In this document: piece after piece, positions 87 through 47,590 of the stretch
Layout: the number at the start of each line of letters is the position of its first letter
Position numbering within the stretch: the stretch's first letter is position 1
From: Candidatus Woesearchaeota archaeon
GTDB lineage: Archaea > Nanobdellota > Nanobdellia > Woesearchaeales > GW2011-AR4
Length of the DNA: 64,000 nucleotides
Assembly: GCA_018303655.1 (NCBI GenBank)
Contig: JAGVXT010000007.1
Location: forward strand, 18,228-82,227
Direction of reading: 5' to 3'
The notes under the pieces: generated by a model
Databases searched by the model: none
What the model was told of the DNA's origin: nothing
The model's input: the letters and a program-made list of their open reading frames with translations, nothing else
Translations under genes and position numbers: made by a program

Positions 87-1775
87 TTGAAGAAGAACAG
101 CAAAGGCAAGGTTACAGAAAAGCCAGAAGATATGTTCAGAAGAGTTGCCAAGAATATCGCGCTTGCTGATGCAAAATACAAAAATAAGAACATAAAGAAA
201 ACCGAAGAGGAATTCTATAATTTGATGATTTCGCTTGATTTCCTGCCGAATTCCCCGACATTGCTTAATGCGGGAAGAAAGCTGCAGCAGCTGGCAGCAT
301 GCTTTGTTCTGCCTATAGATGATGGCATCGATCCAATATTCAAGACCCTGCATTATGCTGCCTTGATCCACAAGACAGGCGCCGGGACCGGATTCAATTT
401 CTCAAGCTTAAGGCCAAAGGGCGACATCATAGAAAGCTCTGGCTTCACTTCAGGGCCTGTTTCTTTCATGAAGATATTTGACGCTGCAACAGAGCAAATC
501 AAGCTTGGAGGAACTTTAAGGGGAGCCAACATGGGCATTTTGAATGCTGACCATCCTGACATCGGGGATTTTATAACAGTCAAAAGCAAGGAAAATGTGC
601 TTACAAATTTCAATGTTTCAGTTGCGATAACGGATAAGTTTATTGATGCAGTCAAAAAAAATAAAAAATACAATCTGGTAAATCCAAGAACAAAAAAAAT
701 TGTCAGAAAAGAAAGCGCAAGAAGAATTTTTAAGCTGATTTGCGAGCAGGCATGGCTTAATGGCGACCCCGGAGTCATATTTATAAACAGGATTAACATG
801 TTTAATCCGACTCCAAAGCTTGGGAAAATTGAGTCAACGGATAGTTGTGGGGAACAGCCGCTTTTGCCATATGAGGCCTGCAATTTGGGAAGCATTAATT
901 TATCCAATTTTGTTTACAATAAAAAAATTGATTATGGCAGATTGGGAAAAACAATACATTCTGCAGTGCATTTTCTTGACAATGTAATTGACATGTGCGA
1001 CTATCCGTTAAAAGAAAATAGAAAAACTGTTGAGAAAAACAGGAAGATTGGGCTGGGGGTGATGGGCTTTGCCGATATGCTGATCAATCTTGGGATTAAT
1101 TATGACTCGGAAGAAGGGCTAAAGGCAGCAGAAGAAATAATGAAATTCATATCAAAAGAGGCAAGCATTGCATCAATGGAACTGGCCAATAAACGGGGCT
1201 CTTTTCCAGAATGGAAGAACAGCATCTATAATAAAAAATTAAAATTAAGGAATGCAACCCGCACAACAATAGCGCCAACAGGCACAATAAGCATAATTGC
1301 CGATGTTTCAAGCGGCATAGAGCCGCTGTTTGCATTAAGCTACTCAAGAAAAACTGCAGAAGGCAAAACATTGACATATTTTGATAAGAATTTGAAGAAG
1401 GCATTGATTGAAAACAGGATTTATAATGATGAAATTATTGAAAAAATAAACAAGGAAGGTTCAATAAAAAACATTAGTGAAATTCCGAAAAAAATAAGAA
1501 AGATATTTGTTGTTGGAAGCGACATAGAAGCGGAATGGCATGTCAGAATGCAGGCTGCCTTCCAGAAATATGTTGACAACGGGATTTCAAAAACAGTGAC
1601 CTTGCCGAAAGACGCAACTGTTGAGGATGTGGAGAAAATCTTCATGATGGCTCATGAGCTTGGATGCAAGGGAATTTCCGTATACCGCTATGGGAGCAGG
1701 GAAGGGCAGGTTATTTATTTAAGCTCAAAAAGGGACGAGCAGATTACTTTGAGCAATTTTATTAAAAACAGATAA
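87..1775 (+). CDS. nrdJ: Class II (adenosylcobalamin-dependent) ribonucleotide reductase; the true start lies upstream of 87 and is unresolved
   Basis: N-terminal EQRYLKKNSKGKVTEKPEDMFRRVAKNIA and the overall sequence are typical of NrdJ. The conserved FSGNALTIL preceding it is encoded at 48..74, in frame but with no ATG/GTG/TTG. Confidence 0.85.
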   Translation: MKKNSKGKVTEKPEDMFRRVAKNIALADAKYKNKNIKKTEEEFYNLMISLDFLPNSPTLLNAGRKLQQLAACFVLPIDDGIDPIFKTLHYAALIHKTGAGTGFNFSSLRPKGDIIESSGFTSGPVSFMKIFDAATEQIKLGGTLRGANMGILNADHPDIGDFITVKSKENVLTNFNVSVAITDKFIDAVKKNKKYNLVNPRTKKIVRKESARRIFKLICEQAWLNGDPGVIFINRINMFNPTPKLGKIESTDSCGEQPLLPYEACNLGSINLSNFVYNKKIDYGRLGKTIHSAVHFLDNVIDMCDYPLKENRKTVEKNRKIGLGVMGFADMLINLGINYDSEEGLKAAEEIMKFISKEASIASMELANKRGSFPEWKNSIYNKKLKLRNATRTTIAPTGTISIIADVSSGIEPLFALSYSRKTAEGKTLTYFDKNLKKALIENRIYNDEIIEKINKEGSIKNISEIPKKIRKIFVVGSDIEAEWHVRMQAAFQKYVDNGISKTVTLPKDATVEDVEKIFMMAHELGCKGISVYRYGSREGQVIYLSSKRDEQITLSNFIKNR

Positions 1776-7732: not shown

Positions 7733-8044
7733 GTGAGTCAAATGTCAAGAGCTAGAAGAATGCAACATGCACAATACCTTAGACATACCTATTACGCTGA
7801 TTTTCCAGATTCTGAAAGATATAAGGTTGATTTAGACTCTGGAAAGTTCGGAAATTTACCTCCTGATTTTTTTGAAAAACTATCCCAAAAAGGTTATGGA
7901 TTTCGAAACCAACTAGGGGAACCTTATCAAAATTTAGACACTGCAAGCCTACTTGAAGAAATAAAAAGTTCTGGGGCAGGAGATTTGCCCGGTTTAAATA
8001 TCCACAACAACAGTCGCTTTCCAATTATTTTTTTCCTTCTTTAA
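7733..8044 (+). CDS. Hypothetical protein; the tail overlaps the convergent archease 3' end
   Basis: ORF only, with no recognisable motif. Confidence 0.25.
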   Translation: MSQMSRARRMQHAQYLRHTYYADFPDSERYKVDLDSGKFGNLPPDFFEKLSQKGYGFRNQLGEPYQNLDTASLLEEIKSSGAGDLPGLNIHNNSRFPIIFFLL

Positions 8045-8440
8045 TTCAAACATGTGCATAGTAATTGCTTTAATATCATTCTCCAAACTCTGCACTTCCG
8101 GATTTATTTTGTCGCCTTCAAGAACGGCCTTGAGCTTGTTTTTCTTTCCTTCCTCAATGATTACATGCGCATGCTTGAAAACCATGTACTTTGAATCCTT
8201 CAAAAACAAAATTTCAGAAAGAAAATCGTACAGAAGATTGTCCAATTTGTTGTTTTCCAGTTCAAACTCGACTTTTTTGCTTGCATCCACGGTGTCCAAA
8301 TCAGCGCTTAATTCAAAAATTGCAAGTGCTGCATTCTCAAATAATTCATTCAAGTCTTTTCCGTAAGCCTCGAATGCAATGTCGGCTATTGCAATATCCT
8401 CTAGAAACTTGTATTTTGTCTTGTCGTTGTTTATATTCAT
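7994..8440 (-). CDS. Archease (RtcB activator)
   Basis: KFLEDIAIADIAFEAYGKDLNELFENAALA matches the archease N-terminal signature. The start was chosen at the internal Met, 2 nt after the ZIP stop. Confidence 0.8.
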   Translation of the reverse strand: MNINNDKTKYKFLEDIAIADIAFEAYGKDLNELFENAALAIFELSADLDTVDASKKVEFELENNKLDNLLYDFLSEILFLKDSKYMVFKHAHVIIEEGKKNKLKAVLEGDKINPEVQSLENDIKAITMHMFELKKEKNNWKATVVVDI

Positions 8441-8442
8441 TT

Positions 8443-9192
8443 TTAATGCTGGAATAATTTTCCTACGATCCATATTAATAATATACCCAGCGCAAGCAAA
8501 ACAAGCTGGACAAGTGATTTTTTTAAATCTTTTTCCTTTTGTATTTCAGGAATCAAATCAGTGCTTGCAATATAAACAAAGCCTCCCACTGCGAAAGAAG
8601 TAAGAAAAATTGTCGAATTATTTATTGCATTTGAGTAAAAGTAAGCAGCCAATGCCCCTACAACAGCAGTCAAGGCTGTCAAAAAATTATAAATCAATGC
8701 CTTTGCCTTTGAAAATCCGCCGTAAATCAGGATTGAAAAGTCAGCTATCTCCTGCGGGATCTCATGAGCTATTATTGCGATTGTTGCAATTATGCCAAGC
8801 GCTGTGCTGTTCATGAAGCTGATTGCAATCACCGCTCCGTCAAGGAAATTATGTATCGCGTCGCCAACAATGTTTAAGTAGGTGAATCCGTGCACTTCCT
8901 CGTGCTCATGCCCTGCATGGTGATGGTGCCAGTGCAGGAATTTTTCAAGCACGAAAAATGAGAGTATACCAATCAGAATGAAAACAGGCACGCTTTCCCT
9001 GAATCCTTCTTCAAGCGCCTCAGGAAGCAGGTCAAGAAACGCCGCTCCGAGCAAAGTGCCTGCAGCAAAGCTGACAAGATAAAATAAGATTCTATCCAGT
9101 GTTTTCTTACGAAAAAAAATAAGAATTCCAAGTAGTGAAATTAGACTGACTATCAAAACTGCGATGAGGATTTGTATTAATACTACAACCAT
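8443..9192 (-). CDS. ZIP family divalent metal transporter
   Basis: HEIPQEIADFSIL motif, a His-rich loop (HWHHHHAGHEHEEVH) and multiple TM segments. Confidence 0.8.
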   Translation of the reverse strand: MVVVLIQILIAVLIVSLISLLGILIFFRKKTLDRILFYLVSFAAGTLLGAAFLDLLPEALEEGFRESVPVFILIGILSFFVLEKFLHWHHHHAGHEHEEVHGFTYLNIVGDAIHNFLDGAVIAISFMNSTALGIIATIAIIAHEIPQEIADFSILIYGGFSKAKALIYNFLTALTAVVGALAAYFYSNAINNSTIFLTSFAVGGFVYIASTDLIPEIQKEKDLKKSLVQLVLLALGILLIWIVGKLFQH

Positions 9193-9193
9193 T

Positions 9194-10681
9194 TTATCCT
9201 TTTATATTTCCCACAGGCTTCAGCCCGACAACAGGCTTGCTTATCCCGGCTTGTGAAACAGCATCAATAACATCAGTTATATTTTTATATGCAAAACCGG
9301 CTTCTTCAGCCAATCCTGGCATTGAGGTTGCCTTCACATAAATTCCTCTTTTTTCCATGTCCTTTTGCAATTGCTCTCCCCTAACTTGCCTTTTTGCAGC
9401 AGCCCTTGACATTGTGCGTCCGCTTCCATGAGCAGTGCTTCCAAAAGTTTCGTCCATTGCTTTTTGAGTTCCAACAAGCAAAAATGAGCCTGTTTCCATT
9501 GAGCCTCCTATTATAACAGGCTGTCCTGTTTCCTTGAATATTTTTGCCAATTCAGGGTGATGGGGAGGAAACGCTCTTGTTGAGCCTTTTCTGTGAACAA
9601 CAAGCTTTTTCTTGTGCCCATCAATTGTATGCTCTTCGAGCTTTGCTATGTTGTGCGCAACATCATAGACCATGTGCATATCCAGTTTTTCAGCTTCTGT
9701 CTTGAAAACTTTTGAAAAGCCTTCCCTTATCCTGTGCAAAATAACCTGCCTGTTTGAAAATGCCATGTTGGCGGCGCATGCCATTGCCTTGTAATAATCC
9801 TGGCCTTCATTGCTCTGAAAAGGAGCGCAAGCTAATTCCCTGTCATAAACCTCAATATTATACTTTTTCATCATTCCTTCAAAAATTCTTAAGTAGTCAG
9901 TTCCAATCTGATGCCCAAATCCCCTTGAGCCACAGTGCACCATAACAACAACCTGTTCTGATGTGTGAATTCCAAATTTTTTTGCAAGCTCCTCATCAAA
10001 AATATTTTCAGCTTTCACAATTTGAATTTCCAAGTAATGGTTTCCAGAGCCTAAAGTTCCTAACTGTTTAATTCCCCTTTCAATTGCCTTTGAGCTTACT
10101 TTTTCAGGCTCTGCCCAGTCAATCCTGCCATGACCCTCTGTCCTTTCCAAATCCTCTTGCCACCCATAACCATTTTCAACGCACCATTTTGAGCCATCTG
10201 TCATTATCTCCTTGAATTGTGATTTGTTGGCATCAACAAAGCCTCTTGAGCCGACTCCTGAAGGAACTGTTTTGAACATTGTGTCAACAAGCTCTTTCAG
10301 TTTTGGCTGGACATCCTTGAATGTTAAATTAGTTGTAACTAATCTCATTCCGCAATTTATGTCGAAGCCGATTCCGCCTGGAGAGATTATTCCTGTTTCT
10401 GAATCAAATGCTGCAACTCCGCCAATGGGGAAACCGTCAAGGGCCGAATAAGAAGTTCTTACTCAGAATCCCCAGTGCCCATCTGGCATGCAGAAAGCAT
10501 ACTTTTGTATTCCAGGCAGGCATGCTACATTAGTTACCTGGTTGAATACACCTTCATCCATCTCTCTAAGAAGCTTTTCAGTGGCGTAAATTCTAGCTGG
10601 AACCAGCATTCCTTTCTTGTAGCTGGTTGGAATCTCCCACACATTTTTATCCACACGCTTCATAGGTGGTTGTTCTGCCAT
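9194..10681 (-). CDS. rtcB: RtcB RNA 3'-phosphate ligase, interrupted by a 30-nt BHB intron (exons 10468..10681 and 9194..10437; spliced product 485 aa)
   Basis: A single 496-codon frame with one in-frame TGA at 10463..10465. The flanks read MPDGHWG...GFPIGGVAAFD...GGIGFDINCGMRL, and the rest aligns end to end with my recollection of the archaeal RtcB sequence pattern. Confidence 0.85.
10438..10467 (-). other. Predicted bulge-helix-bulge intron in the rtcB mRNA
   Basis: Removal recreates GYGF. The central helix is GGGG/CCCU, the 3-nt bulges are AUU and UGA, and the inner hairpin is 9 bp with an AACUU loop. Confidence 0.7.
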
Positions 10682-43297: not shown

Positions 43298-43978
43298 ATG
43301 CCTGCAGATTCTCTTGAAAATATAGCGGTGGATGTTCCTAAGAGAACTAGAGTAACCAGGGCTCCGTATCGCAACGGAAGTAATTCTCACTATGCTGACC
43401 CCGCAAATACTACGTTTCAAAAAGAGGCATTGCAGCATATGGATAATTTGTACAATTTTGCCATATTTTTAACGAGAAAACCTTCTGAAGCTGATGATTT
43501 AGTGCAGGAAACTTATTTTAGAGCTTTCAGATTTCAGGATAAATTTCAGCTCGGGACACACATGAGAGCTTGGTTGTTTCAGATAATGAGAAATAATTTC
43601 TTGACACAATACCATAGAAGAGAGCGGGAAACTGCTAATGCTGAAACTGGTGTTCCCGACCACGATGTTCCGATGTTCTATGATGCACCAGCTTATGATA
43701 GCAGCACAATGGAAGTTCATACAGATTTGGAGCGCGCAATGCGCCGAATTCCTGAAGATTTTGGCAAAGCGCTTTTGTTGAGTGAAGTTGAAGGAATGCC
43801 TCTAGAAGAAATTGCTAGTGTTATGGCATGCCCTGTTGGAACTGTCAAGTCAAGAGTTTTCAGGGCAAAGGAGCGCTTGCGTGGATTATTAAGGGATTAT
43901 GATGGGGAATACGATGGACATTACAGAACTCCAGCCAAAAGAGCGTATAATGGAACATCTATAAATTTTTTTGCTTAA
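43298..43978 (+). CDS. ECF-type RNA polymerase sigma-70 factor (bacterial type)
   Basis: Region 2 DDLVQETYFRAFRFQDKF...RAWLFQIMRNNFLTQYHRRER and region 4 LSEVEGMPLEEIASVMACPVGTVKSRVFRAKERL. Confidence 0.8.
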   Translation: MPADSLENIAVDVPKRTRVTRAPYRNGSNSHYADPANTTFQKEALQHMDNLYNFAIFLTRKPSEADDLVQETYFRAFRFQDKFQLGTHMRAWLFQIMRNNFLTQYHRRERETANAETGVPDHDVPMFYDAPAYDSSTMEVHTDLERAMRRIPEDFGKALLLSEVEGMPLEEIASVMACPVGTVKSRVFRAKERLRGLLRDYDGEYDGHYRTPAKRAYNGTSINFFA

Positions 43979-43989
43979 AACTTAAATTA

Positions 43990-44887
43990 TTATAATCCTA
44001 AAAGTTTTTCCACATTCCTCTTAGCTTCTTCCTTTCCCTGCACCAATAATTTTCCATTCTTATAAAGAATAACCGTGCAAGGCCCTTTCATGACCGCTAG
44101 CTCATGCTCTGATTTTGGCTTTTTAAAATGAAAGCCGAAATCTTCAAGTTTTTTCAAATCCTCCAAAGTATGGCTTTTGTGCTTCTGTTCTTCTTTTAGG
44201 AATTGTGTGAAGTCAGATAAACTTTTCTGGAATTTCTTGTTAACCAAATTCTGATATGGAAACCAGCTTTTCCTGAAAATTTCAGGATAATTTTCATAAT
44301 TGTTCTTTAGGAATTCAACTGTTTTTGGGTCTGTCATGTACCCGGAGCCGAAATCTATGCCCAGCTCTTTTTTTAGCAGCTCTATTTCCGTATCCCTTGT
44401 AACTTTGGCCAGAATAGAAGCAGCGCTGACGACTGGGTGATTTAAGTCTGCTTTGTGCTCCAGAACTAATTTAATGTCTTTATTTTTTAATTTCTTCAAG
44501 AGATATACCCTATATTTTTCAATATTATTTCCAGGAGCGTCGATAATCGCTTTATTTGGATTCAAATTATCCAGTATTTCTGCCGATTTATCTGCTTCAA
44601 GCCAGTTTAGGTTTAAACCATCATGTCCTCTCACTGCCTTATCAATCTCCTGTGGGTTAATTATAATAAGCTTATATTTATGTGAGATTTTAAGGATTTT
44701 AGTGTACAGGCCTTCCCTTTCTTCTCTAGTTAAAAGCTTTGAATCCTTTACTTTTATCTTCCTTAACTGGGTTTCTTGTTTCTCTTCTATCTGAAAACCA
44801 CACATTACCAAGGGACCAATGATGGGACCTTAAGGCGAGCCTTTAAAGCTCTCTGCCTGCCTCATCAATCCCGCAGACTGTAGTCAT
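43990..44887 (-). CDS. rnhB: RNase HII, interrupted by a 22-nt BHB intron (exons 44853..44887 and 43990..44830; spliced product 291 aa)
   Basis: Exon 1 encodes MTTVCGIDEAGR and exon 2 continues GPIIGPLVMCGF...DSKLLT...HKAD..HPVVSAASILAKV. The unspliced frame hits TAA after GRE-L. Confidence 0.8.
44831..44852 (-). other. Predicted bulge-helix-bulge intron in the rnhB mRNA
   Basis: Central helix AGGC/GCCU (4 Watson-Crick bp), bulges AGA and UAA, and an inner hairpin GAGC(U)/(G)GCUC. One of three sequence-equivalent frame-restoring deletions. Confidence 0.7.
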
Positions 44888-45909
44888 AAAACAATCACCT
44901 TTTTATGCGAATTAAGTCTTTTCCATTTTTTATCACTATTTCTTTTAACCAAATCTAATTTTTCCAATTCTTTAAGTCTTCTGAAAGATGATTTAAAATC
45001 TACATTAAAATACTTTGCTATTTCCATAGTGGATTTGTTAGAATCAACCAAATAATTGAGGTAGCTCAGCTTCAATTTCGAGATTATTATAATATGTTGG
45101 TCCCTTCTTATCCAGTAACTTTTACTGCCAGACCTAAAATTATTGATAATACCTTTCTCTTTTAAATCAATTAATACGTCTTGAAGTCTAGCTTCTGTTC
45201 TATTAAACTTAATTGCGAGTTCAGACGTCATATATGGATAAATCAACATTTTTAGAAGACTATTTTTTATGTGATGACTTTTATAGTGCCTCTCTTTGAA
45301 TTCACTGTAAATTCTCCAAAATTTTTCTTTTTTAATTGTGTGTAAATCAGCTACTTTTATATTGGCTAATTTTTCCCAATTATCCCAATGGGTTATAAAA
45401 TAGCTTCTATTTCCTGAGTTATAATTGAAATCTATTTTAAGATAATTAAGGATTTTTTCTAAGAAAATGCTAGGTAATTGAGAAATCATTACCGATCTAC
45501 TATTATGGGAACATGATTTTATACTACCTTCTCCTGCAAAAAATCCTCTTAAAATGTCTGGATAGAAAGTTGGATTATTTTTATACAATTCTGCGATATT
45601 CTTCCATTTTTTATTCAATTCTACAGAAGCTAATCTCCAAATGTAATAAGGCTTTGTTGCCCTCTCATCTATATAACTGTTTATTTTAGTAACTTCTAAC
45701 GGAACTGCTACATTTTCGCCAGTAGGAGTATAAACATAGATTCTTATATTGAATTTATGATTTGAGAACAATTTCTTGATATTTTTATGAAAAAATTCAA
45801 TTAGCTCAAACTGATTATTAGTAAAAGTAATTTCATTATTGCACTTATCATCCCCTTCAGCTAGCCATAAGCCAACGCATTCAGCAATTTCTTTGTTCAT
45901 TTTAACCAA
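44884..45909 (-). CDS. Free-standing LAGLIDADG-type homing-endonuclease-like protein with C-terminal wHTH domains
   Basis: Two LAGLIDADG-like motifs (VGLWLAEGD and LRGFFAGEGSI). The stop overlaps the rnhB ATG (ATGA). Confidence 0.65.
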   Translation of the reverse strand: MVKMNKEIAECVGLWLAEGDDKCNNEITFTNNQFELIEFFHKNIKKLFSNHKFNIRIYVYTPTGENVAVPLEVTKINSYIDERATKPYYIWRLASVELNKKWKNIAELYKNNPTFYPDILRGFFAGEGSIKSCSHNSRSVMISQLPSIFLEKILNYLKIDFNYNSGNRSYFITHWDNWEKLANIKVADLHTIKKEKFWRIYSEFKERHYKSHHIKNSLLKMLIYPYMTSELAIKFNRTEARLQDVLIDLKEKGIINNFRSGSKSYWIRRDQHIIIISKLKLSYLNYLVDSNKSTMEIAKYFNVDFKSSFRRLKELEKLDLVKRNSDKKWKRLNSHKKVIVL

Positions 45910-46115
45910 CCTCCAAATTTTTTATTTTATCAAAACTTTGGAGCACAAGAAAAAGAGAATGTTAAGCGAAACTGCGTAATTGATTTTCGTGTCGAAGACC
46001 AAAAAGCATTATTTGGCAGTTTTGCGTGTTCTCTTTTTCCAAAATGCAAGAATTCTTCCTTTATAAATATGACCTGAAGATGTCCAGTGGTATTCTTACT
46101 TTAGAATACGCCATA

Positions 46116-46436
46116 TTATAGTATTTTTGGACCAAAGATGAATAAAATTAACCAAAATGCGATAAGACAAACTGTAATTATTTGTATAATCAACCAAGAT
46201 TTCTTGAGGGTTTTGTTTGTAACATTAATTCTTGGTGCAATATACTTATTGTATAACCACATAAAAAAGTAGGTAATTGAAAGAAACGCAAAACCAGAAC
46301 CAAGCCCTTCCGCAATGCCACCATATAAATCACCTTCCGATAAAGCAGGTGTTAAACGAGAAAGAAAACCTAAAAGTACAATATAGCCTAATATGACCTT
46401 TTGAAACCATGATAATTTCCTGGTTTGTTCTTTCAT
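46116..46436 (-). CDS. Small membrane protein
   Basis: Three hydrophobic segments. Confidence 0.35.
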   Translation of the reverse strand: MKEQTRKLSWFQKVILGYIVLLGFLSRLTPALSEGDLYGGIAEGLGSGFAFLSITYFFMWLYNKYIAPRINVTNKTLKKSWLIIQIITVCLIAFWLILFIFGPKIL

Positions 46437-46708
46437 TTAAATCTAATAAATTAGTTTAGAAAGTGTATATAAATACTTTTTGCATTGTTTATAAAAATTG
46501 TGAGATAAAGTGCTAAAATGCATCCATTATCCCACTGTAATATTTAAGGTTCCACACCGGAACATCCAAATTTAAGTCTTGAAAAACTTAAAGTCTGGAT
46601 AAAAATCCTGCTCCTCCAAAAACCACAATCACTAAAAAAGTCCATAATAGGACTAATAATTGTAGTTTAAGGAAGATGTCTCCCTTAATCTCTTCCATAA
46701 TCATAAAA

Positions 46709-46812
46709 TAGCGGGGGCTGGATTTGAACCAACGACCTATGGGTTATGAGCCCATCGGGCACTCCTGATTAGGCGTTTAGGACAAAATCCTAAAACTCTG
46801 CCCTACCCCGCT
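46709..46812 (-). tRNA. Initiator-type tRNA-Met(CAU) with a 29-nt D-loop intron (46769..46797, about position 15/16)
   Basis: A1:U72 acceptor AGCGGGG/CCCCGCU, anticodon arm AUGGG-CUCAUAA-CCCAU with three G:C pairs, and T arm GUUGG-UUCAAAU-CCAGC. The intron BHB has the D-stem strand GGGC paired to GCCU. Confidence 0.85.
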
Positions 46813-46837
46813 GTAACATTTGAGAAATAAACTTCGT

Positions 46838-46845
46838 TTATAAAC
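46838..46845 (-). promoter_or_regulatory. TATA box for initiator tRNA
   Basis: TTTATAAA lies 26-33 nt upstream of tRNA position 1. Confidence 0.45.
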
Positions 46846-46858
46846 GTTACTGAAACAG

Positions 46859-47590
46859 TTATATTTCAAGCTTTTCCAGTATTTCCTGCCTGCTTATTTC
46901 CTTTATATCGCCGGCTTTCAGGTTTCCCAAAGCCAATCCGCCAATTGAAACCCTTTTCAGATAAGCAACTTTGTTGCCAACTGTTTCAAACATTTTCCTA
47001 ATCTGCCTTTTCTTGCCTTCTGTTATGGAAATGTAAACCTCATTTTCCTTTACTTTTTTTATCCTGCATTTTGTTGTCTTGTATTTGGCATCATCTATTT
47101 CAATTATGACTCCTTTCTCGAGCAGTTTTAAGCTGTCGTTGGCTGCTGGATTTTCAAGGACTGCATTGTATCTTTTTATTATTTCATTTTTTGGATGCAT
47201 TATGAAGTCAGAAAGCTTTCCGTCATTCGTTATTATCATCAGCCCTTCAGTGTCCTTGTCGAGCCTTCCGACTGCAGACAATGACTGGATTTCCTCTTGT
47301 GAAAGATGCAATTTAATTAATAAGTCGTAGATTGTTTTCTCGCTTTCCGCCTTTTGGGACAAATAGCCAGCTGGCTTGTTCATGAGAAAGTAAAGCTTCC
47401 TGGCTTTTTTTATTTTTTTATTCTCTGTTTTCACCAATGACTTTTTCGGGTTAAAAAAATAATTTGGGTTATTGATTATTTCGTTATTGACATAGATTTT
47501 GCCGCTTATTATTGATTCAATGCAATCCTGCATCCTCCTGAATTTGCCTGATTTCATCAGGAACTGCTTCAATGATGTTTTTTTGGACAT
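46859..47590 (-). CDS. Pseudouridine synthase, RsuA/RluB-type (S4 domain plus catalytic domain)
   Basis: AVGRLDKDTEGLMIITNDG catalytic Asp motif and an N-terminal S4-like region. Confidence 0.8.
   Translation of the reverse strand: MSKKTSLKQFLMKSGKFRRMQDCIESIISGKIYVNNEIINNPNYFFNPKKSLVKTENKKIKKARKLYFLMNKPAGYLSQKAESEKTIYDLLIKLHLSQEEIQSLSAVGRLDKDTEGLMIITNDGKLSDFIMHPKNEIIKRYNAVLENPAANDSLKLLEKGVIIEIDDAKYKTTKCRIKKVKENEVYISITEGKKRQIRKMFETVGNKVAYLKRVSIGGLALGNLKAGDIKEISRQEILEKLEI

Follow-up and report, generated by a model that had tools for sequence, protein, structure and literature searches.

A predicted bulge-helix-bulge intron in the rnhB pre-mRNA of a Woesearchaeota archaeon, with same-site counterparts in related archaeal loci

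How can a gene encode an active ribonuclease HII (RNase HII) when its active-site motif is broken by an insert of 22 nucleotides (nt)? This question is raised by rnhB on a 64,000-nt stretch of DNA from Candidatus Woesearchaeota archaeon (GCA_018303655.1, contig JAGVXT010000007.1, positions 18,228 to 82,227), hereafter the window. The analysis described below indicates that the 22 nt at 44831..44852 are very probably a bulge-helix-bulge (BHB) intron of the rnhB pre-mRNA, and that a second gene of the window, rtcB, carries a predicted intron of the same kind.

The interrupted reading frame of rnhB

On the minus strand, the ATG at 44887..44885 opens the sequence MTTVCGIDEAGR, and this upstream frame reads MTTVCGIDEAGREL before it ends at the TAA at 44845..44843, an in-frame stop introduced by the 22-nt insert (44843..44845). 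The program-made list of open reading frames (ORFs) starts rnhB at the TTG at 44811, giving a protein of 273 residues that begins with MVMCGF. Deletion of 44831..44852 (AGAGCTTTAAAGGCTCGCCTTA on the coding strand) yields an in-frame RNase HII of 291 residues, which matches the Pfam profile RNase_HII from profile position 1 with an E-value of 9.4e-43. The N-terminus of this product, VCGIDEAGRGPIIGPLV, aligns residue for residue with that of P. horikoshii RNase HII (1uax), VAGVDEAGRGPVIGPLV. The predicted exon-exon junction reads GATGAGGCAGGCAG|AGGTCCCATCATTGG, and the intron begins 35 nt into the ORF. Because the catalytic Asp-Glu pair is encoded in exon 1, upstream of the break, the annotated truncated RNase HII would be inactive. 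A Shine-Dalgarno-like site precedes the start codon, and its context aaaaaggtgattgttttATG is kept in the related loci L001, L002, L004 and L006; this conserved context supports the ATG at 44887 as the true start of rnhB, not the internal TTG or ATG.

The identical product results from exactly three deletions of 22 nt (offsets 0, +1 and +2), and the BHB geometry is found at offset 0 only. At this offset, the exon bases A44858-C44855 (AGGC) pair with the intron bases G44836-U44833 (GCCU) at all four positions, forming a central helix flanked by two bulges of 3 nt each, AG|A and UA|A. The intron itself contains an inner helix of 5-6 base pairs (bp), the h' element, in which G44851..U44847 pair with G44841..C44837. 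An unconstrained minimum-free-energy fold recovers both the central and the inner helices. In the register with 3-nt bulges, C44859-G44829 is the sole pair available to the outer helix in the window. The rnhB motif is the relaxed HBh' form, with an outer helix of essentially one C-G pair, which is reduced because the DEAGRGP codons determine the exon sequence. A sequence-only reading of this DNA had described the MVMCGF start in the ORF list, the upstream ATG that runs into TAA, the canonical 291-residue start regained upon removal of 22 nt, the three equivalent deletions with one of BHB geometry, the AGGC/GCCU helix with its bulges and inner helix, and the single outer pair; all of these descriptions hold, with the profile match, the 1uax alignment and the unconstrained fold as further support.

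How far does this single locus carry an intron? A random 22-nt insert would show four of four central pairs and at least five inner pairs, in any of seven registers, with P = 6.5e-4. The relaxed BHB motif has 850 and 837 matches per strand of the window, compared to 762-832 in shuffles. Since it is as common in shuffled sequence, the motif alone is weak evidence and motif-only detection was rejected. Several further observations weigh against an intron at 44831..44852. The outer helix of the canonical hBHBh' motif is lacking, and a slipped helix of 2-3 bp needs a 3' bulge of 4 nt. A relaxed motif of this kind is not cut by strict alpha4 or alpha'2 endonucleases, so that an endonuclease of broad specificity would be needed. 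None of the ~50 window ORFs covered by the Pfam scans matches tRNA_int_endo, which leaves the window without a recognizable tRNA-splicing endonuclease EndA, and no database protein is identical to the spliced form of the window rnhB product. Moreover, the folding stability is unexceptional compared to shuffles (z = -0.76 for rnhB and -1.72 for rtcB); neither value is significant, and no argument was based on stability. As for the enzyme, broad-specificity EndA variants (L3-loop alpha4) and many disrupted tRNA genes have been reported from DPANN archaea, a Woesearchaeota genome included (PMC5829648). Altogether, the single-locus case is moderately beyond chance. Given a common motif and an unremarkable folding energy, the decisive evidence is comparative.

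Covariation and distribution of the rnhB insert

Two classes can be told apart among the nearest RNase HII homologues: full-length proteins of 289-299 residues with a continuous DE(A/S)GRGP or DEARRGP motif, and short calls of 270-276 residues that start at MCGF. The insert lies at the same place in all DNA examined of the short-call class, and intronless close relatives read straight across GRGP. L001 differs from the window by a single C-to-U change that turns a G-C pair into G.U. L004 and L005 have an inner helix changed from GAGCU/GGCUC to GAAUU/AAUUC, which amounts to two double compensatory changes. L003 and L006 possess an unrelated intron of 29 nt with a central helix of CGGA/UCCG, because the exon there reads AGC GGA and not GCA GGC. 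The comparison with rnhB of related genomes that the sequence-only reading had suggested reveals homologous introns at the same site, with compensatory changes.

A scan of genome contigs with the single protein gave one locus. To extend the sample, metagenome contigs were scanned with a DNA pattern in which only the exon flanks were fixed and a gap of 16-46 nt was allowed. At least 119 stretches matched, of which L044 is a chance match and the rest are rnhB N-termini. The metagenome matches listed, the window, and look-ups in genomes and contigs together give at least 112 distinct rnhB loci in which 19-45 nt interrupt the Arg codon behind the same two bases, representing at least 107 distinct introns. 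The pattern fixes the position of the insert and the preceding AG, so that conservation of position is partly ascertained, whereas pairing is not. The intron interior was left unconstrained, which keeps the covariation test free of circularity.

All four pairs of the central helix are present in 110 of the 112 listed loci, compared to 27.3 ± 4.3 loci (maximum 44) when introns were permuted among loci in 10,000 trials. Its outer two positions coincide with the third positions of the Ala and Gly codons, where A-U, U-A, C-G, G-C and wobble pairs occur in step with the intron; in other words, intron bases track the synonymous choice of Ala and Gly codons in the listed loci. Pairs were counted on the fixed-column alignment A1, with 500 shuffles and slid partners as controls. 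In the central helix, pairing holds in 99.5% of cells; its two variable positions show 5-6 pair types and changes on both sides. The five pairs of the inner helix are formed in 93.3% of cells, and all five show changes on both sides. For the outer helix, 57.1% of cells are paired and one consistent pair is seen: C(-7):G(+2) is present in 98 of 108 loci, and the next position, -8:+3, is G.G in all but one. Neither the canonical nor the slipped outer helix is kept beyond 1-2 pairs (in the slipped form, only the two bulge-adjacent pairs are interpretable). The covariation score is 0.697, compared to 0.195 for shuffled alignments, none of the 500 reaching the observed value, and at most 0.16 for slid partners. 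This covariation across at least 112 loci, together with the rtcB junction described below, supports the interpretation of the insert as a BHB intron.

Reading frames across the insert point in the same direction. The unspliced frame meets a stop in all 112 listed loci, in 111 of them within the intron, which precludes a tolerated peptide insertion. Frame-shifting lengths account for 66 of the 112 introns, and the remaining 46 have lengths that are multiples of three, all with an in-frame stop. We note as an aside that the stops in all 46 introns of the latter group may hint at selection against translating unspliced RNA. A further observation concerns the interrupted codon: intron-bearing alleles use AG|R for the Arg codon, which is partly imposed by the search pattern, and the two intronless AGRG/SGRG alleles examined use a CGN codon (CGC in L133 and CGT in L134).

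The distribution of the intron is patchy. Of the 120 nearest RNase HII homologues, 18 belong to the intron type; they are interspersed with intronless ones, and a neighbour-joining tree requires at least seven changes. Close relatives that form a large intronless clade (P0036-P0120) carry DEARRGP or DESRRGP instead of DEAGRGP. The listed intron-bearing loci share 35-91% protein identity with the window and range from 20 to 57% in G+C content; according to the source records, their hosts belong to Woesearchaeota/Nanoarchaeota and Bathyarchaeia. The divergent intron locus L081 shares 71-74% identity with RNase HII proteins recorded under Candidatus Bathyarchaeia, and L139, from Bathyarchaeia (GCA_052743835.1, JBRAIG010000001.1, ~1437..1500), has a 23-nt intron at the same site with a central helix of UGGG/CCCA. 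L042 was grouped with L081 and L139 in this respect. With a Bathyarchaeia genome among its carriers, the predicted rnhB intron is not confined to DPANN, and the site, judged from these sequences, spans at least two archaeal superphyla.

Public annotation has followed the broken frames. The record P0001 is a "ribonuclease HII" of 271 residues, and P0193 is an "RtcB family protein, partial", as expected from the earlier claim that ORF callers truncate or split such genes. Gene callers at times also start inside the intron and read its 3' part (P0090, P0241, P0242, P0245 and P0246), which leaves spurious intron-derived N-termini in public records, for example MIAKLFSPK-GPVIGP and MRFPK-GPIIGP.

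The rtcB intron, proposed splicing and alternative explanations

The sequence-only reading had already taken rtcB as a second case of like architecture, and this view stands. The predicted rtcB intron of 30 nt forms a central helix of GGGG/CCCU and an inner helix of 10 bp, and its bulges are AU|U and UG|A. The BHB cut rule builds a UAC Tyr codon across the junction; nine deletion registers were compared, and the BHB register alone gives Tyr, the others giving Asp or Phe. Tyr occupies the junction residue in 110 of the 110 RtcB homologues that show the motif. As only one register restores Tyr, rtcB serves as an independent test of the BHB cut-site rule. The predicted junction is CACTGGGGAT|ACGGTTTCCCCATT, and the spliced RtcB comprises 485 residues with 90% identity to full-length homologues. 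Introns of 31 nt are found in rtcB of L126-L129 and L131, where the base of the inner helix shows compensatory changes, and the intronless L132 reads GGT TAT GGT at the site; RtcB homologues are mostly intronless. A tblastn search of 125 rnhB loci found no rtcB.

The ligase expected for BHB introns is encoded in the window itself by rtcB (9194..10681), together with the RtcB cofactor archease. The genes for RtcB, a ZIP metal transporter and archease form a row (7994..10681, minus strand) that has the same order in L126-L131. The positions of these features are listed in Table 1.

Table 1. Positions of the rnhB and rtcB features and of two further genes in the window
Feature	Position	Strand	Remarks
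Shine-Dalgarno-like AGGTGAT	44894..44900	-	6 nt upstream of the rnhB start codon
rnhB exon 1	44853..44887	-	MTTVCGIDEAG, then AG of the Arg codon; carries the catalytic pair Asp-Glu (GIDEAGRG motif)
Predicted BHB intron of rnhB, 22 nt	44831..44852	-	Relaxed HBh' type; mRNA AGAGCUUUAAAGGCUCGCCUUA
Layout of the rnhB intron			First base belongs to the 5' bulge; inner hairpin 44837..44851; 3' strand of the central helix 44833..44836; 44831..44832 are the first two bases of the 3' bulge
5' strand of the rnhB central helix (AGGC)	44855..44858	-	Exon bases -6..-3; pairs with GCCU 44833..44836
rnhB exon 2	43990..44830	-	Third base of the Arg codon, then GPIIGPLV... to stop
rtcB exon 1	10468..10681	-	Ends with ...MPDGHWG and U of the Tyr codon
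Predicted BHB intron of rtcB, 30 nt	10438..10467	-	UCUGAGUAAGAACUUCUUAUUCGGCCCUUG
rtcB exon 2	9194..10437	-	AC of the Tyr codon, then GFPIGGV... to stop; starts AC-GGU-UUC
Archease gene (RtcB cofactor)	7994..8473	-	Pfam Archease, E = 9.7e-40
LAGLIDADG-like ORF, 341 residues	44884..45909	-	Two C-terminal winged-helix domains; TGA overlaps the rnhB ATG (ATGA)

From these sequences we infer the cleavage, the ligation and the enzymes that would perform them, and propose the following process. In the rnhB transcript, the exon bases -6..-3 would pair with the intron GCCU to form the 4-bp central helix, flanked by the 3-nt bulges AG|A and UA|A and accompanied by the intron-internal hairpin. EndA would then cleave after the second base of each bulge, at G44853|A44852 and A44831|A44830, and RtcB, aided by archease, would ligate the exons and thereby rebuild the Arg codon AG|A. 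Translation of the spliced message would give the 291-residue RNase HII with its catalytic Asp-Glu pair, and the unspliced mRNA would give a peptide of 14 residues only. The 30-nt rtcB intron would be removed by the same mechanism, in which case the message of the ligase would require the ligase for its own maturation. The rtcB intron may thus make ligase production ligase-dependent and form a self-reinforcing switch.

The earlier claim that the organism routinely places micro-introns in its mRNAs is borne out in part. Two clear cases among ~50 annotated ORFs are notable in 64 kb; however, no further split gene is evident among the ~50 window ORFs, whose Pfam matches have essentially complete profile coverage, and "routine" is an extrapolation. 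A scan of the window for ORF-joining BHB motifs gave no other convincing case, the candidates beyond rnhB and rtcB looking random, and tRNA and Rfam scans of the window gave no matches.

Could the interrupted frame be explained without cutting the RNA? In programmed recoding of the kind known from T4 gene 60, the hairpin would stimulate the ribosome to pass the 22 nt by bypassing or frameshifting. The stop right after the take-off region and the hairpin within the gap would suit such an event, and the introns of crenarchaeal cbf5 were initially mistaken for frameshifting (PMC2738675). However, the gap splits codons both in rnhB (AG|A) and in rtcB (U|AC), and a hopping peptidyl-tRNA cannot join separated bases; on this ground, translational bypassing was rejected. 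Take-off and landing codons that match are absent, the gap of 19-45 nt covers all three residue classes modulo 3 in the listed loci, and exactly 2 nt separate the covarying helix from either junction, a spacing seen in BHB substrates, all of which makes recoding highly improbable. Just as improbable is an inactivated gene, that is, a disabling insertion that left rnhB a pseudogene or an inactive short protein made from an internal start. Gene callers and public annotation do give a protein of 271-273 residues starting with MCGF or MVMCGF, but this short product lacks the catalytic Asp-Glu. Moreover, exon 1 with its Shine-Dalgarno site, start codon and DEAG codons is conserved across the 112 listed loci at 35-91% identity, the exon 2 ORFs are intact, and the structure covaries, unlike what is expected of a dead insert. 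As for a sequencing or assembly artefact, by which the 22 nt would be absent from the real genome and which the sequence-only reading had named as a refutation, nothing speaks for it beyond the general fragility of metagenome assemblies. The identical or a near-identical insert is present in independent NCBI, ENA, JGI and Logan assemblies, and the short protein P0001 is encoded on 21 contigs, so that we give this explanation next to no credence.

An alternative of another kind accepts the BHB intron and concerns its use. Splicing might be partial and regulated, not constitutive, and, in analogy to HAC1/XBP1, switch the expression of RNase HII and RtcB. The stop in the upstream frame of all 112 listed introns, including the 46 in-frame ones, would keep the unspliced mRNA silent, the intron is placed only 35 nt into the rnhB ORF, and a like intron in the ligase gene rtcB would provide a built-in feedback. 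Removal of a BHB intron from the 5' untranslated region of HVO_1309 affects expression in Haloferax (PMC7714728). Many close relatives, however, have no intron, which speaks against a regulatory function that is essential and agrees with a neutral or selfish element; we therefore regard a switch as unlikely, though conceivable.

Neighbouring genes and relation to known introns

Directly upstream of rnhB lies an ORF of 341 residues with two LAGLIDADG-like motifs, GLWLAEG and GFFAGEG. Homologues of this ORF sit directly upstream of rnhB in 30 of the 94 listed intron-bearing loci with enough upstream sequence and are absent next to rnhB in the remaining 64; examples include the window, L001, L004, L009, L013, L016, L032 and L043, among others. 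Eight loci have the ORF joined to exon 1 as an in-frame fusion (559 residues in L013 and 561 in L096), and none of these loci shows a start codon in the 30 nt given before the exon 1 motif. Both motif glutamates are invariant in 18 members of this family (34-57% identity), and all 18 match PF14528. A profile search of PDB sequences with the family found winged-helix regulators only, through the C-terminal part, and the single protein matched nothing. The LAGLIDADG assignment therefore rests on Pfam PF14528 and the two motifs. Three intronless syntenic lineages, too few for a statistical comparison, are without the LAGLIDADG-like ORF, and no LAGLIDADG-like gene neighbours the rtcB intron.

Judged from its sequence, the 341-residue ORF may encode a homing endonuclease that is free-standing and tied to the site of the intron. 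By analogy, the rnhB micro-intron and the abutting or fused LAGLIDADG-winged-helix gene could form a collaborative homing pair, a proposal that we put forward tentatively and consider rather unlikely. The endonuclease would cut intronless rnhB within the conserved DNA coding for GIDEAGRGP, the BHB intron would split the target site and protect its own chromosome, and both would spread via repair. Similar to the collaborative homing of cyanophage psbA/F-CphI (PMC6083498) and T4 mobE (PMC2790892), the putative endonuclease gene is located beside and not inside an intron-bearing conserved gene, and the intron occupies a highly conserved coding stretch; in the phage systems, intronless alleles of related genomes are without the endonuclease gene, and the three intronless lineages sampled here would be in keeping with this. 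Unlike the phage cases, which involve self-splicing group I introns, rnhB would have a protein-spliced BHB micro-intron on an archaeal chromosome and a predicted endonuclease. If true, such a pair would give archaeal mRNA micro-introns their first proposed mobility mechanism and would explain the placement of such introns in active-site codons.

Other features of the neighbourhood deserve mention. An ORF for an ECF-type sigma-70 factor (43298..43978, plus strand) is convergent with rnhB and matches Pfam Sigma70_r2 (2.6e-12) and Sigma70_r4_2 (6.7e-14). The syntenic loci L002, L133 and L135 have just 40-190 nt between rnhB and the next gene, and from its sequence the sigma factor ORF looks like a lineage-specific insertion of bacterial origin. 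On the other side, ~950 nt between the LAGLIDADG-like ORF and a pseudouridine synthase gene (46859..47590) contain no ORF of 120 residues or more and no Rfam match (45910..46858). Intronless relatives also have a gap of 550-1070 nt upstream of rnhB.

Among known systems, the closest is the cbf5 intron of Crenarchaeota, which has 16-44 bp and a relaxed BHB motif, interrupts the codon of a catalytic residue, and was confirmed to be spliced (PMC2738675; Watanabe 2002; Yokobori 2009). The rnhB and rtcB introns resemble it as short BHB introns of coding sequence with a relaxed motif in the codon region of catalytic residues, and the removal of the rnhB intron would likewise be needed for an active enzyme. 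They also share with it a patchy distribution that implies gain and loss, and they are mis-annotated or ignored by gene prediction. There are differences in gene and lineage, cbf5 introns occurring in Crenarchaeota (Desulfurococcales/Sulfolobales), compared to rnhB and rtcB of Woesearchaeota/Nanoarchaeota within DPANN and of Bathyarchaeia. In addition, the sequence diversity of the rnhB introns is much larger (at least 107 distinct introns), and about one third of the intron-bearing rnhB loci have a LAGLIDADG-like ORF next to exon 1. Splicing of cbf5 was confirmed by experiment, whereas splicing of rnhB is predicted from its sequence.

Archaeal tRNA introns (Marck and Grosjean 2003; PMC5829648) have the same 4-bp central helix and 3-nt bulges with the cut after the second bulge base, as well as an intron-internal helix and a length of tens of nt. 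The canonical tRNA intron at 37/38 also has the topology of rnhB, in which exon bases pair with the 3' part of the intron. By contrast, the rnhB substrate is an mRNA without a tRNA body, and its outer helix has about one pair. An mRNA is likewise the substrate of the archaeal splicing endonuclease in the case of the BHB intron of Haloferax volcanii HVO_1309, from which 46 nt are removed (PMC7714728). However, that intron lies in the untranslated 5' leader and leaves the frame uninterrupted, and its splicing was verified, including by circular-RNA sequencing (PMC7714728).

A more distant likeness is seen in HAC1/XBP1 splicing, where a protein endonuclease excises a short mRNA intron at stem-loops, the exons are rejoined and the frame is changed. 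The XBP1 intron has 26 nt. The endonuclease of HAC1/XBP1 is Ire1 and not the tRNA endonuclease, the cleavage sites are twin stem-loops and not a BHB motif, and the process belongs to a regulated stress response. The ligase provides a further link, since RtcB participates in XBP1 mRNA splicing (PMC8718801) and, according to the title of Tanaka et al. 2011 as listed in PMC5829648, catalyses HAC1 mRNA splicing in vivo.

For more than 20 years, cbf5 has been cited as the sole archaeal coding sequence with a confirmed BHB intron. A 2020 paper names it as the only additional BHB intron reported to date (PMC7714728), and in a 2025 structural paper, cbf5 papers alone stand among the pre-mRNA intron references (PMC12397907). 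A full-text literature search, which leaves subscription journals mostly outside, found no report of a BHB intron in rnhB or rtcB, and a prior description is possible. What would be new is the genes and the lineages, with rnhB and rtcB, and DPANN and Bathyarchaeia, joining the archaeal BHB pre-mRNA introns; the kind itself, an archaeal BHB pre-mRNA intron, is already known.

If the rnhB and rtcB inserts are such introns, archaeal mRNA splicing would extend well beyond cbf5. RNase HII and RtcB of these lineages are systematically mis-annotated as truncated or partial proteins, which distorts estimates of completeness and metabolic inference. Motif-only genome scans miss introns of this kind, and the restoration of conserved motifs combined with covariation finds them. 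The hundred or more natural variants of one intron offer a ready substrate panel for studies of endonuclease specificity. Moreover, an intron in the message of the ligase and a linked LAGLIDADG gene raise questions about the regulation and the mobility of protein-spliced introns.

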